Below are positions 16,721-20,487 of a DNA stretch of 64,000 nucleotides, one piece after another; position 1 is the stretch's first letter; each line of letters opens with the position of its first letter. The translations under genes and the position numbers were made by a program. The stretch lies in NCBI RefSeq assembly GCF_024298765.1, contig NZ_CP101210.1. One strand, 5' to 3'. The notes below the pieces were generated by a model. The model was given only the letters and a program-made list of their open reading frames with translations, did no database searches and was not told the origin of the DNA. Source of the stretch: Escherichia coli (lineage in GTDB: Bacteria > Pseudomonadota > Gammaproteobacteria > Enterobacterales > Enterobacteriaceae).

Positions 16721-18712
16721 ATGTCCTCACGTAAAGAGCTTGCCAATGCTATTCGTGCGCTGAGCATGGACGCAGTACAGAAAGCCAAATCCGGTCACCC
16801 GGGTGCCCCTATGGGTATGGCTGACATTGCCGAAGTCCTGTGGCGTGATTTCCTGAAACACAACCCGCAGAATCCGTCCTGGGCTGACCGTGACCGCTTC
16901 GTGCTGTCCAACGGCCACGGCTCCATGCTGATCTACAGCCTGCTGCACCTCACCGGTTACGATCTGCCGATGGAAGAACTGAAAAACTTCCGTCAGCTGC
17001 ACTCTAAAACTCCGGGCCACCCGGAAGTGGGTTACACCGCTGGCGTGGAAACCACTACAGGTCCGCTGGGTCAGGGTATTGCCAACGCAGTCGGTATGGC
17101 GATTGCAGAAAAAACGCTGGCGGCGCAGTTTAACCGTCCGGGCCACGACATCGTCGACCACTACACCTACGCCTTCATGGGCGACGGCTGCATGATGGAA
17201 GGCATCTCCCACGAAGTTTGTTCTCTGGCGGGTACGCTGAAGCTGGGTAAACTGATTGCGTTCTACGATGACAACGGTATCTCTATCGATGGTCACGTTG
17301 AAGGCTGGTTCACCGACGACACCGCAATGCGTTTCGAAGCTTACGGCTGGCACGTTATTCGCGGCATCGACGGTCATGACGCGGCATCCATCAAACGCGC
17401 AGTAGAAGAAGCGCGCGCAGTGACTGACAAACCGTCCCTGCTGATGTGCAAAACCATCATCGGTTTCGGTTCCCCGAACAAAGCCGGTACGCACGACTCC
17501 CACGGTGCGCCGCTGGGCGACGCTGAAATTGCCCTGACCCGCGAACAGCTGGGCTGGAAATATGCACCGTTCGAAATCCCGTCTGAAATCTATGCTCAGT
17601 GGGATGCGAAAGAAGCAGGCCAGGCGAAAGAATCCGCATGGAACGAGAAATTCGCTGCTTACGCGAAAGCTTATCCGCAGGAAGCCGCTGAATTTACCCG
17701 CCGTATGAAAGGCGAAATGCCGTCTGACTTCGACGCCAAAGCGAAAGAGTTCATCGCTAAACTGCAGGCTAACCCGGCGAAAATCGCCAGCCGTAAAGCG
17801 TCTCAGAATGCGATTGAAGCGTTCGGCCCGCTGTTGCCGGAATTCCTCGGCGGCTCTGCTGACCTGGCACCGTCTAACCTGACCCTGTGGTCTGGTTCTA
17901 AAGCAATCAACGAAGATGCTGCGGGTAACTACATCCACTACGGTGTTCGCGAGTTCGGTATGACCGCGATTGCTAACGGTATCTCCCTGCACGGTGGCTT
18001 CCTGCCGTACACCTCCACCTTCCTGATGTTCGTGGAATACGCACGTAACGCCGTACGTATGGCTGCGCTGATGAAACAGCGTCAGGTGATGGTTTACACC
18101 CACGACTCCATCGGTCTGGGCGAAGATGGCCCGACTCACCAGCCGGTTGAGCAGGTCGCTTCACTGCGCGTGACCCCGAACATGTCCACATGGCGTCCGT
18201 GTGACCAGGTTGAATCCGCGGTCGCGTGGAAATACGGCGTTGAGCGTCAGGACGGCCCGACTGCGCTTATCCTCTCCCGTCAGAACCTGGCGCAGCAGGA
18301 ACGTACTGAAGAGCAGCTGGCAAACATCGCGCGCGGTGGTTATGTGCTGAAAGACTGTGCCGGTCAGCCGGAACTGATCTTCATCGCGACCGGTTCTGAA
18401 GTTGAACTGGCGGTTGCTGCCTACGAAAAACTGACTGCTGAAGGCGTGAAAGCGCGCGTGGTTTCCATGCCGTCTACCGACGCGTTCGACAAGCAGGATG
18501 CGGCTTACCGTGAGTCTGTACTGCCGAAAGCGGTTACTGCACGCGTTGCGGTGGAAGCGGGTATTGCTGACTACTGGTACAAGTATGTTGGCCTGAACGG
18601 TGCTATCGTCGGCATGACCACCTTCGGTGAATCTGCTCCGGCAGAGCTGCTGTTTGAAGAGTTCGGCTTCACCGTTGACAACGTTGTTGCGAAAGCGAAA
18701 GCGCTGCTGTAA
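16721..18712 (+). CDS. tktA: Transketolase 1 TktA (663 aa)
   Basis: ORF 16691..18712 trimmed to [19 protein letters not shown]. Confidence 0.95.
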
Positions 18713-18734
18713 TCGGTAAGATGCTTTGTGAGAA

Positions 18735-18759
18735 GGGCCGCGAAAGCGGCCCTTTTTTT
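18735..18759 (+). terminator. Rho-independent terminator of tktA
   Basis: gggccgcgaaagcggccc followed by ttttttt; the T-run overlaps the stop codon of the convergent SPFH gene. Confidence 0.65.
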
Positions 18760-19666
18760 ACTTAGTAGAGATAAACGGAACTGTACTGCCGGGGATCATG
18801 GTATCGGGTAGCTTACCGTCCCAACGCTCAGCAGTGGTGAGGGCAACAAGTCCGGGATTATCCCGCAGAGCTTCACCGCGCAGGCGGATCGCTTCTGCTT
18901 CAGCCGCACTTTTTAAACGAATAGTTTCAGCCTCTGCCGCGCCTCTTACGCGAATAGTCTCAGCTTCTGCTTTGGCTGCCGCCAGTTTACTGTCTGCTTC
19001 AGCCTGGGCCTGAGTTACTGCTATTTGCGCCTGGATTTTCTCTGTTTCCAGATTTTGCTTACGTGTGGCAATGGCGACTTCTGCTTTCATTCGATCTTCA
19101 ATCGATTTTTCATAAGCGTCAGAAAAATCAATATTTTCAATCTGGACACCATCAATCACCACCGGGCCAACAACGGCTTTACGCATTGCATTTTGCAGAT
19201 CCTGAACCAGTTTTGTACGATCCTGTACCGCGCTGATGGCGGTATATTGGCCGAAAACGTTCTCCAGTTGAGTTGGCAGCTGGCGGACGATCAGACGCTC
19301 TTTTAAAGATTCAATGGTGTTGTAGGTTGTATAAACTGCGCCAGCTTCTGAAGGTTTAATGTGGAAGCTGACTGATACTGTCATTTGTGCCGGTTGCTGG
19401 TCGCGGCTGTAGGCCTGTAATCCCTGATAAACCACAGCCTGATTACGCGTGGAAATTTTCTCCACGCTTTCCATAAAAGGGATCTTAAAACCCAGACCCG
19501 GCTCGGCAACTTTTACGATTTTTCCGTAGCGCAGCAAAATGCCGCGTTCACCTTCATTAACGGTGTAATACGAGAGAAATGGCAGCACAACCACGGCAAG
19601 CACGCCAATGACGATAGCAATAGATTTTTGTGGGCGAAATGAGGTTATTGAAACAGGTGCTTTCAT
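18758..19666 (-). CDS. SPFH/band-7 (prohibitin/HflC-like) membrane protein with C-terminal repeat-containing coiled coil (302 aa); candidate accessory gene
   Basis: ORF 18758..19666 with SD aaggaag 7 nt upstream; N-terminal TM helix (IAIVIGVLAVVVLPF) followed by an SPFH-like region; C-terminal AEAETIRVRGA/AEAETIRLKSA/AEAEAIRLRGE repeats. Confidence 0.8.
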   Translation of the reverse strand: MKAPVSITSFRPQKSIAIVIGVLAVVVLPFLSYYTVNEGERGILLRYGKIVKVAEPGLGFKIPFMESVEKISTRNQAVVYQGLQAYSRDQQPAQMTVSVSFHIKPSEAGAVYTTYNTIESLKERLIVRQLPTQLENVFGQYTAISAVQDRTKLVQDLQNAMRKAVVGPVVIDGVQIENIDFSDAYEKSIEDRMKAEVAIATRKQNLETEKIQAQIAVTQAQAEADSKLAAAKAEAETIRVRGAAEAETIRLKSAAEAEAIRLRGEALRDNPGLVALTTAERWDGKLPDTMIPGSTVPFISTK

Positions 19667-20043
19667 GACAATCTTCCTTGAGTAAAGTGTGGGAATATGT
19701 CACATGAGGTGAGGAGAAAACAGCCTACAGGTGAGAATTCAGAATCTATAAAGGGGTATAGCGAAAAAACATTGCATTAAAAAAGTATGTTTTCGGACAT
19801 TCAATAAATAAATGGCGATATGTATCACAAATACAACAACAATCAAAATGTTGATTTTGTGATAAACATAACAAATACAAAGTTGACTTTAAAAATATCA
19901 ATTTCATTTTGTTGTTATTTAAAGTTTTATTATTTTTGTTCATGGGGTTTTTCTTCTCGCGTACCCAATTGCTTTCATTAAACCGCACGAGTATTTTATT
20001 TTTACCGCCGGACGGTACCCTAAAAATAAAATAAGGATAATTT

Positions 20044-20487
20044 ATGCGGCTTATTGATTATTTTCCAGAATCATCAATCTCAGTTATACATTCAGCAAAA
20101 GATTGGCAGGAAGCTATCGATTTCTCGATGGCATCATTGCTGGATAAAAACTATATCAGCGAGAATTACATTCAGGCAATTAAAGATTCCACCATTAACA
20201 ATGGCCCTTATTATATTCTCGCACCAGGCGTGGCAATGCCTCATGCGCGACCGGAATGTGGGGCGCTTAAAACCGGGATGTCTTTGACATTACTTGAACA
20301 AGGTGTTTATTTTCCGGGGAATGACGAACCAATTAAATTACTCATCGGACTCTCTGCTGCCGATGCCGATTCGCACATTGGCGCTATTCAGGCGTTAAGT
20401 GAATTACTGTGCGAAGAAGAAATACTCGAACAACTCTTAACAGCATCATCAGAAAAACAATTAGCGGACATTATCAGCCGCGGATAA
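20044..20487 (+). CDS. cmtB: Mannitol-type PTS EIIA component CmtB (147 aa)
   Basis: ORF 20044..20487; translation matches recalled CmtB. Confidence 0.85.
   Translation: MRLIDYFPESSISVIHSAKDWQEAIDFSMASLLDKNYISENYIQAIKDSTINNGPYYILAPGVAMPHARPECGALKTGMSLTLLEQGVYFPGNDEPIKLLIGLSAADADSHIGAIQALSELLCEEEILEQLLTASSEKQLADIISRG

Follow-up and report, generated by a model that had tools for sequence, protein, structure and literature searches.

Between tkt and the cmt operon, the Escherichia coli DNA analysed here (a stretch of 64,000 nt, hereafter the window) carries a minus-strand coding sequence for a 302-aa SPFH protein (18758..19666), which starts with ATG and is preceded by the Shine-Dalgarno sequence AAGGAAG, 6-12 nt 5' of the start codon. 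The initial annotation had proposed this open reading frame from the DNA letters. The gene is real: its product matches Pfam Band_7 (E=4e-30) and is modelled with a pLDDT of 92, and among 5,426 complete E. coli genomes, 1,830 already have it annotated in RefSeq as a 'prohibitin family protein', so that it was known as a gene (the allele of strain MLI121 being WP_000646928.1). However, our literature search found no paper on the SPFH gene between tkt and cmtB of E. coli, and the SPFH genes mentioned in a paper on the AIEC strain LF82 are the four of K-12 only.

The SPFH gene is convergent to tkt, and a hairpin (AAGGGCCGC-GAAA-GCGGCCCTT) followed by a T-run lies between the two stop codons (18733..18759), with the G+C-rich stem and its GAAA loop at 18733-18754 and the T-run overlapping the SPFH stop codon. 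Because a generic terminator scan missed this element, it was folded directly and evaluated by fold energies and shuffles. On the tkt strand, the hairpin is followed by U7 and folds with -22.8 kcal/mol (z=-3.7); it is a canonical intrinsic terminator for tkt. On the strand of the SPFH gene it is trailed by UUCUC and is therefore a weaker terminator. Thus, the idea of a terminator shared by both genes stands insofar as one hairpin separates the stops, yet its tail is weak for the SPFH gene. Of note, the hairpin is triplicated in strain MLI121.

On its other side, the SPFH gene is separated from the divergent cmtB by 377 bp (19667..20043). As the initial annotation had pointed out, this spacer is AT-rich, with 31% G+C against 52% for the window overall; its last ~85 bp before cmtB are common to K-12-type genomes. 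A generic sigma-70 scan of the region retrieved no full -35/-10 promoter (0 sites vs 2.6 expected). Conservation nevertheless points to a candidate extended -10 element, TGACATATT (TGnCATnnT; 19694..19702, minus strand), 28-36 nt before the ATG, where the pattern T-TG-CAT--T is invariant in eight upstream regions from Escherichia, Pseudocitrobacter and Kluyvera. A further block, ATTCTGAAT (19737..19745, minus strand; ~72-80 nt before the ATG), is kept across the three genera. A sigma-E reading of the conserved TCTGA block was rejected, as no conserved -35 element accompanies it. An Rfam search of positions 18400-20300 gave two sub-threshold chance matches only, so the spacer contains no known RNA.

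The predicted protein has the build that had been suggested at the outset, i.e. one N-terminal transmembrane (TM) helix, an SPFH region and a repeat-bearing helical tail, and both Pfam and AlphaFold bear this out. The AlphaFold2 model (monomer; mean pLDDT 91.9) begins with a signal-anchor helix at residues 12-32 (19571..19633, minus strand), in agreement with hydropathy (best 19-residue window from residue 15, mean Kyte-Doolittle 2.49). The Band_7 domain (PF01145) spans residues 35-210 (19037..19564, minus strand) and model positions 2-176 of 176; the same domain was matched in all 112 aligned relatives. Its globular alpha/beta part, residues 33-181 in the model and likewise recovered by Foldseek, gives way to a single alpha-helix of 87 residues (183-269; 18860..19120, minus strand; pLDDT mostly >90), which in full-length Foldseek alignments corresponds to the wall-forming coiled-coil helix of SPFH cage protomers. 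Within this helix, the protein alignment places three 11-residue (hendecad) units of the form AEAE(T/A)IR(V/L)(R/K)(G/S)(A/E) at residues 233-265 (18872..18970, minus strand), namely AEAETIRVRGA, AEAETIRLKSA and AEAEAIRLRGE. There are three such units in Escherichia and two in Kluyvera and Pseudocitrobacter. The underlying DNA consists of imperfect 33-39-nt repeats, and Tandem Repeats Finder reported no significant DNA tandem array. After the long helix follow a short one (272-281) and an extended tail. This C-terminal segment (residues 270-302; 18761..18859, minus strand) is conserved: W282, G284, L286, P287, P292 and P297 show no or almost no variation in the family alignment, and residues 245-302 separately match phrog_38808 in the PHROG collection.

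The charges that flank the TM helix (+3 N-terminally, 0 C-terminally) speak to its orientation. Across the family, the mean flank charge is +1.12 on the N side and -0.71 on the C side, and the N side is the more positive in 95 of 112 members (positive-inside rule). Besides, the motif that follows the TM helix, YTVNEGERGILLRYGK, aligns with FVVKEGERGITLRFGK of HflC, a periplasmic protein (PMC10434171). Most likely, then, the N-terminus is cytoplasmic, with the SPFH domain, the long helix and the tail predicted to face the periplasm.

As to the subfamily, the assignment to SPFH proteins held in the domain search, and the outcome of the finer comparison depends on whether a single sequence or the family is compared. 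With the single sequence, a search of the PDB placed HflC (5e-14) above PHB1 (3e-5), and the affinity to prohibitins appears only at profile level. There, the profile of the family (252 clusters at E<=1e-30, the full-length members among those listed measuring ~280-300 aa) ranked PHB2 (8e-31), prohibitin (8.5e-31) and PHB1 (7e-27) over HflC (1e-23), HflK (6e-21), QmcA (7e-20), stomatin (8e-14), erlin (9e-12) and flotillin (6e-7). By structure, Foldseek gave a probability of 1.00 to HflC, PHB1/2, erlin, HflK, QmcA, stomatin and flotillin, the full-length alignments being led by HflC (8e-17), PHB1 (3e-15) and PHB2 (6e-15), followed by erlin, HflK and QmcA. A phage homologue carries the CDD annotation SPFH_prohibitin. 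The profile comparison thus shows the prohibitins to be the nearest relatives, and the features of the protein agree with those of SPFH4, the p-prohibitin subfamily (Hinderhofer et al. 2009, PMC2636767). In keeping with this, Shewanella sp. ANA-3 and S. frigidimarina, each with one SPFH4 protein in the table of that study (PMC2636767), each carry a member of the family described here.

Since HflC and HflK are the best single-sequence matches in the PDB and NCBIfam, since the predicted topology is identical, and since both eukaryotic prohibitins and HflKC associate with FtsH-type proteases (PMC2636767), the protein might be a third subunit of the HflK/HflC type, which enters the HflKC-FtsH complex as an additional or substitute member and forms no assembly of its own. 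Yet its scores fall far below the equivalog cut-offs for HflC (TIGR01932, 60.7 bits vs 134.4) and HflK (TIGR01933, 37.7 vs 159.4), just as that for FloT (NF058507, 17.3 bits vs 700) was not reached, and the family profile prefers prohibitins. The gene lies outside the hfq-hflX-hflK-hflC operon, two thirds of E. coli dispense with it while keeping HflKC, and members of its family stand alone on phages and plasmids. We therefore regard a role as an HflKC subunit as very unlikely and favour an SPFH4 protein in its own right.

The initial annotation had stressed that no partner gene accompanies this SPFH gene. Indeed, neither the open reading frames of the window nor the RefSeq annotation of the region include an NfeD-type or a second SPFH gene. 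The same picture emerged from relatives: neighbour clustering over ~90 related loci yielded no neighbouring gene family common to different genera, Pfam annotation of the gene contexts in Kluyvera, Klebsiella and Dokdonella showed no NfeD, and the neighbours tested, including candidate small ones searched with NCBIfam and Pfam, were MurU, RsmD or without a family match, none of them NfeD. Nor did these two collections identify as NfeD either of the two small proteins that flank a plasmid paralogue. However, NfeD has not been found for SPFH4 either (Hinderhofer et al. 2009, PMC2636767), and with no neighbour shared across genera, the absent partner is the norm and not an anomaly, explained by subfamily membership. 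Hence, the gene is indeed a singleton, but this is not unusual.

The SPFH gene is present in 34% of the complete E. coli genomes surveyed, while 3,595 of the 5,426 have a short K-12-type spacer between tkt and cmtB instead. In K-12-type genomes the two genes are adjacent, as the initial annotation had stated, with a gap of 313 bp and no gene inside, so that presence in K-12 and all E. coli, which the initial annotation had named as a refutation, was not observed. This K-12-type allele is very uniform (at least 99% in 2,679 of the 3,595 genomes). Judged by strain names, carriers include ST131, Nissle, ATCC 25922 and O145, and non-carriers K-12, B, O157:H7 and O103:H2; extraintestinal pathogenic (ExPEC) lineages are thus among the carriers (ST131, ST73/Nissle/ATCC 25922). 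The only O103:H2 genome among those listed has the K-12-type spacer, and O103:H2 is the serotype of strain E22. For this reason, the SPFH4 entry ZP_00728121 that the table of Hinderhofer et al. gives for E. coli E22 (PMC2636767) is probably a different, mobile copy and not the gene between tkt and cmtB.

How did this patchy distribution arise? The junction differs from that of K-12, which might be read as an insertion into a K-12-like arrangement; by the comparison across genomes, this reading is probably wrong. The gene order cmtA-cmtB-SPFH-tkt-loiP recurs in E. whittamii, Escherichia sp. MOD1-EC7003, E. albertii and strain SCPM-O-B-8794, and SPFH-tkt-loiP in Pseudocitrobacter and Kluyvera, where the SPFH gene is convergent to tkt, too. 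With growing species distance, its dS rises from 0.08 over 0.3-0.4 and 0.77 to 1.4, and between E. coli and Kluyvera the identity of the SPFH protein (82%) is close to that of the neighbouring LoiP (85%). In addition, part of the spacer (19788..19833) can still be recognised as homologous to the K-12-type spacer, with a local alignment score of 37 compared to a mean of 20.0 (sd 2.8, max 34) for shuffles, which means that the latter holds a diverged remnant of the upstream region of the SPFH gene. Neither direct repeats nor target-site duplications were found on the flanks of the SPFH gene, nor were there integrase, IS, tRNA or mobility genes.

Low G+C content and an AT-rich flank are often seen in acquired genes. 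Accordingly, the locus could be read as a plasmid- or phage-derived islet that entered the tkt-cmtB junction in some lineages, with the K-12 state as the ancestral one: GC3 of the SPFH gene is low (43.9%, at an overall G+C of 48.4%, compared to a GC3 of 63.6% for tkt) and its flank has 31% G+C, only about a third of the genomes carry it, and conjugative plasmids and phages often carry members of its family (strong match to phrog_200, 8e-63). But the low G+C is a local property, as the adjoining cmtB has an even lower GC3 (37%), and the nearest plasmid copies are just ~73% identical. Position and orientation maintained in E. albertii, E. whittamii, two more Escherichia lineages, Pseudocitrobacter and Kluyvera, a dS that scales with host divergence, a protein identity that tracks LoiP, the lack of integrase, IS and tRNA genes and of a target-site duplication, and the diverged piece of upstream region within the K-12 spacer likewise speak against the islet, which we consider unlikely. 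Because the tkt-convergent position recurs in other Escherichia, Pseudocitrobacter and Kluyvera, a deletion is the likelier origin of the K-12 state. We infer from synteny, from dN/dS values of 0.01-0.06 and from the K-12 spacer remnant that the gene is more likely ancestral and lost than inserted: it would have sat beside tkt in the Escherichia ancestor and have been deleted, probably, in the lineage with K-12, B, O157:H7 and O103:H2.

The gene is demonstrably intact and under strong purifying selection. Relative to orthologues from Escherichia species and Pseudocitrobacter, dN/dS is 0.016-0.061, and 0.008-0.031 without the TM region and with Kluyvera included; 1,818 of the 1,830 carrier genomes match it over at least 80% of its length, and every carrier among those listed has it annotated as a CDS. 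One might suspect a non-functional remnant, decaying or silent, given that a generic scan finds no sigma-70 promoter, that the AT-rich upstream region could be silenced by H-NS and that most E. coli lost the gene without obvious harm. This is extremely unlikely, however, given the constraint over deep divergence, the intactness in nearly all carriers and the conserved Shine-Dalgarno and extended -10-like motifs.

Relatives of the SPFH gene occur on mobile elements. One paralogue (73% identity) lies between traB and traV in the tra operon of IncF plasmids from Enterobacter, and another (72%) in an integrative element of Klebsiella oxytoca (ArdC/HNH/methylase). Further members are found on Pseudomonas pCAR1-type plasmids and in jumbo and small phages, the phage homologues being 45-53% identical to the E. 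coli protein. These contexts raise the question of whether its real role relates to mobile elements, as a scaffold that aids or blocks conjugation or phage infection (e.g. by superinfection exclusion), and not to housekeeping quality control of membrane proteins. Against this, no family among the 5,027 defence models of PADLOC-DB was matched at E<=1, the vertically inherited chromosomal copy has only metabolic neighbours (tkt, cmt operon), and the window offers no tie to a T4SS. Such a role therefore seems to us improbable for the E. coli protein.

Overall, we think it likely that the locus harbours a chromosomal, vertically inherited SPFH4 gene that was present ancestrally and disappeared from the K-12 lineage, and whose product forms a periplasm-facing homo-oligomeric cage without NfeD. 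The N-terminal helix would anchor the protein in the inner membrane with its N-terminus in the cytoplasm, and the rest of the chain, from the SPFH domain through the 87-residue helix to the conserved C-terminal tail, would face the periplasm. By analogy to the solved structures of HflK/C, prohibitin, QmcA, stomatin and erlin, many copies would probably assemble into a homo-oligomeric ring or cage enclosing an area of the inner membrane. Such a cage may serve as a scaffold for client membrane proteins or hold them in check; FtsH or a similar membrane protease is the obvious candidate. As SPFH4 has no known NfeD partner, the protein presumably functions alone, without NfeD or a second SPFH subunit. 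SPFH deletion mutants of other bacteria often have weak phenotypes (PMC13086221). A bolder version of this reading, which we deem quite unlikely, would grant the ExPEC-rich third of E. coli a fifth SPFH assembly: a periplasm-facing, homo-oligomeric 'bacterial prohibitin' cage independent of HflKC, possibly with a gating role for FtsH or other machines of the envelope or, as in the plasmid and phage paralogues, with an effect on conjugation or phage entry. If true, this would imply a distinct envelope physiology in those lineages.

What we describe is otherwise an ordinary, already annotated accessory/ancestral gene. Its significance lies in the fact that work on SPFH proteins and membrane microdomains of E. 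coli relies on K-12, for which four SPFH proteins are counted (HflK, HflC, QmcA and YqiK; PMC10434171). The gene between tkt and cmtB adds a fifth. It is under tight constraint and occurs in one of every three sequenced strains, with major extraintestinal pathogenic lineages among them. As a simple, single-gene bacterial counterpart of the mitochondrial prohibitins, it could become a tractable model for the assembly and the contents of homo-oligomeric cages.

Compared with known systems, the E. coli protein has no substantive difference from SPFH4 (PMC2636767), with which it shares a length of ~290 aa, the N-terminal TM helix, the SPFH domain, the coiled-coil helix, the absence of NfeD and the predicted periplasmic orientation. 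SPFH4 seldom co-occurs with HflK/C (PMC2636767), yet E. coli carriers have both, as do Shewanella species in the table of that study. The phage and plasmid relatives, among them phrog_200, those of jumbo phage GAP32, the 'band 7 protein' of phage Skarpretter and WP_045340601.1 of an Enterobacter IncFII/IncR plasmid, belong to the same family, have the same length and are 45-73% identical over ~90% of the protein; they differ in their mobile contexts (tra operon, phage early regions), whereas the E. coli copy is chromosomal and syntenic with metabolic neighbours. QmcA-YbbJ and YqiK-YqiJ (PDB 8z5g) share the fold of an SPFH cage protomer, but have an NfeD partner, which is found neither near the SPFH gene nor at the related loci examined, and QmcA and YqiK face the cytoplasm (PMC10434171), opposite to the orientation predicted here.

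HflK/HflC, the cage that modulates FtsH (PDB 7vhp, 7wi3), is the best match by single sequence and Foldseek and has in common with our protein the predicted N-in/C-out topology and a near-identical motif after the TM helix, V-x-EGERG-x-x-LR-F/Y-GK; on the other hand, the SPFH gene is unpaired, its product stays below the NCBIfam cut-offs and, with 302 aa, it is shorter than HflK (419 aa). PHB1/PHB2 (PDB 8rrh, 9o9z, 9unl) are the best profile match (8e-31 to 7e-27, near full length), have the same fold order and form a cage of the mitochondrial inner membrane whose anchor puts the bulk of the protein in a compartment topologically equivalent to the periplasm. Still, identity in structural alignments is just 17-20%, and the AEAE-IR 11-residue repeats and the W-x-G-x-LP tail are features of the bacterial family only. 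Finally, PHB1 and PHB2 form an obligate hetero-oligomer, whereas the E. coli protein, encoded by a single gene, would be expected to assemble with copies of itself.

The initial annotation of a lone SPFH/band-7 gene between tkt and cmtB is accurate, but the finding is an ordinary one: the gene already has an annotation, belongs to a known SPFH subfamily whose members have no partner, and was probably present in the Escherichia ancestor and later deleted in the K-12 lineage. What interest remains is that it encodes a fifth, as yet unstudied SPFH protein of E. coli, one that is missing from the laboratory strain behind all SPFH work; our literature search found no paper on the tkt-cmtB SPFH gene. 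In the ORF listing, its coding sequence (18758..19666, minus strand; 302 aa) begins with an ATG preceded by an AAGGAAG Shine-Dalgarno sequence, and is flanked by tkt (plus strand, ending at 18712) and cmtB (plus strand, starting at 20044). The 377-bp spacer towards cmtB is AT-rich, as had been noted, with a G+C content of 31% versus 52% for the window. Between the convergent tkt and SPFH stop codons, fold energies mark a hairpin with a 9-bp G+C stem and a GAAA loop (18733-18754), which is followed by seven U on the tkt strand (-22.8 kcal/mol, z=-3.7), yet by only UUCUC on the SPFH strand (-18.1 kcal/mol). Thus, of the terminator initially assigned to both genes, the hairpin is indeed common, whereas the U-tract serves tkt.

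Megablast with the junction as query, run on 5,426 complete E. coli genomes, revealed a clean two-allele polymorphism. Of these, 1,830 carry the SPFH gene (with a coverage of 80% or more in 1,818), including O25b:H4-ST131, Nissle 1917, ATCC 25922 and an O145 strain, and its RefSeq label in carriers is always "prohibitin family protein". A 232-bp K-12-type spacer is found in 3,595 genomes, including K-12 derivatives, a B strain, O157:H7 and O103:H2, and the two alleles together account for 5,425 of the 5,426. In K-12-type genomes, tkt and cmtB lie 313 bp apart, which bears out the adjacency initially given for K-12, and a separate terminator hairpin is present in the spacer. A third, rare junction state is represented by E. 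coli E70 (L013:6341-7717), with an IS1 element after tkt and without cmtB, cmtA and the 5' part of yggP. Directly at the junction, there is also a small allelic difference in tkt, whose product ends in ...AKAKALL in the window (18692-18712) versus ...AKAKELL in K-12-type genomes and E. coli MLI121 (comparison loci L001, L002). From the tkt stop to the SPFH gene, MLI121 (L002:3134-3503) carries two tandem 174-bp units with REP/BIME-like palindromes, each opened by the terminator hairpin AAGGGCCGCGAAAGCGGCCCTT, which hence occurs three times there. Match spans of 1551, ~1712 and ~1898 bp suggest that 0, 1 or 2 of these units are present, varying by strain.

Five lines of evidence make an ancestral gene, since lost from the K-12 lineage, more likely than an insertion. 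First, comparing synteny at the junction, as initially proposed, showed that the tkt-convergent position is shared: K-12-type genomes lack the gene, while the order is cmtA-cmtB-gene-tkt-loiP in E. whittamii, Escherichia sp. MOD1-EC7003, E. albertii and strain SCPM-O-B-8794, and gene-tkt-loiP, likewise convergent to tkt, in Pseudocitrobacter and Kluyvera. Second, synonymous divergence from the window allele increases with host distance (dS 0.08 in E. coli, 0.32-0.41 in other Escherichia lineages, 0.77 in E. albertii and ~1.4 in Pseudocitrobacter), and identity to the Kluyvera protein (82%) resembles that of the adjoining LoiP (85%). Third, the K-12-type spacer aligns to 19788-19833 upstream of the gene (score 37 versus a shuffle mean of 20.0, sd 2.8), which favours a remnant of the gene's upstream region. 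Fourth, the boundaries of the gene lack direct repeats, IS elements and integrase genes alike. Fifth, the K-12-type allele is near invariant, as opposed to 95.6-100% identity within the gene-bearing allele. An insertion would fit the gene's low GC3 (43.9%; neighbouring cmtB 37%) and the mobility of its family, which has plasmid, integrative-element and phage copies; set against the five lines, we regard it as rather unlikely, and ancestry with loss as the probable history. The dN/dS of the gene is 0.016-0.061 where dS is unsaturated; with the TM region set aside and Kluyvera added, it is 0.008-0.031.

Two elements upstream of the gene are conserved in three genera: a TGnCATnnT motif (19694-19702), plausibly a candidate extended -10 element, and a ATTCTGAAT block (19737-19745). 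The divergent spacer also contains a 21-nt inverted repeat (19818-19838 / 19849-19869, 81% complementary) and a CRP-like site, TGTGATAAACATAACA (19858-19873). Since the TCACA...TGTGA arms are kept in other Escherichia species and the K-12-type spacer, this region (19818-19873) is a likely operator that would serve the cmt operon, the SPFH gene or both.

Mobile relatives are numerous. Using tblastn, we found plasmid-borne copies in Enterobacter and Kosakonia (71-74% identical) and in Pseudomonas (58-59% identical). On the conjugative IncFII/IncR plasmid pMB9539_2 of Enterobacter hormaechei, a 73%-identical paralogue (L094:4905-5789) sits in the F-type transfer operon between traB and traV, beside two small hypothetical proteins without a Pfam or NCBIfam match. 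The surroundings of a 72%-identical chromosomal paralogue in Klebsiella oxytoca (L007:6001-6903) look like an integrative element (TraF_2, HNH, Rrf2, DUF2913, ArdC/N6-methylase fusion). Phages, too, have copies (45-53% identical), namely jumbo phages of the GAP32 group and phage Skarpretter, and the protein matches phrog_200 (E=8e-63). In the ~350-kb jumbo phages the family member lies near one genome end (e.g. Cronobacter phage GAP32, 13592-14368), and in Skarpretter, a 42-kb coliphage, in the replication-gene region (L095:3932-4783); altogether, ~280 phage records have a match, Stx2a-converting phages among them. Across all genera, 654 matching plasmid records are typed non-mobilizable, and 353 Escherichia plasmid records hold more distant SPFH relatives (<60% identity). 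The SPFH4 protein listed for E. coli E22 (Hinderhofer et al. 2009) may be such a distant plasmid relative and not the tkt-linked gene. While these plasmid, integrative-element and phage relatives mean that the gene may have a role linked to mobile elements, nothing in the window supports this, and PADLOC defence models did not match the protein.

The SPFH/band-7 assignment holds in Pfam, with a single domain covering the whole PF01145 model (E=4e-30, residues 35-210). A confident AlphaFold2 model (mean pLDDT 91.9), built on a 112-sequence alignment, comprises the expected single N-terminal TM anchor helix (residues 12-32), an alpha/beta domain (33-181), one uninterrupted helix (183-269) and a short helix (272-281) followed by an extended tail. 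The repeats described for the helical tail are 11-residue AEAE-IR units, three in Escherichia proteins versus two in Kluyvera and Pseudocitrobacter (18872-18970 in the window; comparison loci L003, L017, L018); exactly one extra hendecad would lengthen the helix and leave its register unchanged. E. albertii has a 3-residue QGL duplication within the SPFH domain. Full-length Foldseek matches in the PDB are protomers of solved SPFH cages, in the order HflC (8e-17), PHB1 (3e-15), PHB2 (6e-15), then erlin-1/2, HflK and QmcA. The TM helix has flank charges of +3 (N-terminal) and 0 (C-terminal), the N-flank being the more positive in 95 of 112 relatives, and the residues right after it, YTVNEGERGILLRYGK, align with FVVKEGERGITLRFGK of HflC, the bulk of which is periplasmic (PMC10434171). 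On these two grounds, everything beyond the TM anchor, namely the SPFH domain, the long helix and the tail, is predicted to face the periplasm. To our knowledge, solved relatives all form large rings or cages on the membrane. Most likely, the protein would assemble into a homo-oligomeric cage enclosing an inner-membrane patch, with FtsH, by analogy with HflKC and prohibitins, as a first candidate client.

That the gene stands alone had been taken as a departure from SPFH habit; in fact, the expectation of an NfeD partner or an HflK/C pair applies to stomatin-type, flotillin-type, SPFH5 and HflK/C proteins. Hinderhofer et al. 2009 report having identified no NfeD homologue for SPFH3, SPFH4 and SPFH6-12 (PMC2636767). 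Checking homologues for an NfeD neighbour, we found none in Pfam-annotated contexts in Kluyvera, Klebsiella oxytoca and Dokdonella. When three genes on each side were clustered at ~90 loci, no neighbour cluster extended beyond a single genus or a set of close, syntenic relatives, and representative co-oriented neighbours were MurU, RsmD, an SH3-like protein or lacked a family match, none being NfeD. Together with the published statement, these three tests therefore make the singleton state the rule for this prohibitin-type family. As to its place among SPFH proteins, single-sequence PDB matches rank HflC (5e-14) and HflK (4e-11) above PHB1 (3e-5), and the protein falls far under the NCBIfam cut-offs for HflC and HflK. 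The family profile gives the opposite ranking against PDB sequences, led by PHB2 (E=8e-31), "prohibitin" (9urz; E=8.5e-31) and PHB1 (E=7e-27), ahead of HflC (E=1e-23), HflK (E=6e-21), QmcA (E=7e-20), stomatin (E=8e-14), erlin (E=9e-12) and flotillin (E=6e-7). The family itself is both large and uniform (252 clusters of 50% identity at E<=1e-30), full-length members among the matches listed having ~280-300 aa, and a phage homologue bears the CDD label SPFH_prohibitin. Its equivalent in the classification of Hinderhofer et al. 2009 (PMC2636767) is SPFH4, the "p-prohibitin" subfamily; the table of that paper has one SPFH4 protein each in Shewanella sp. ANA-3 and S. frigidimarina, matching the one family member that our genome scan found in each of these two.
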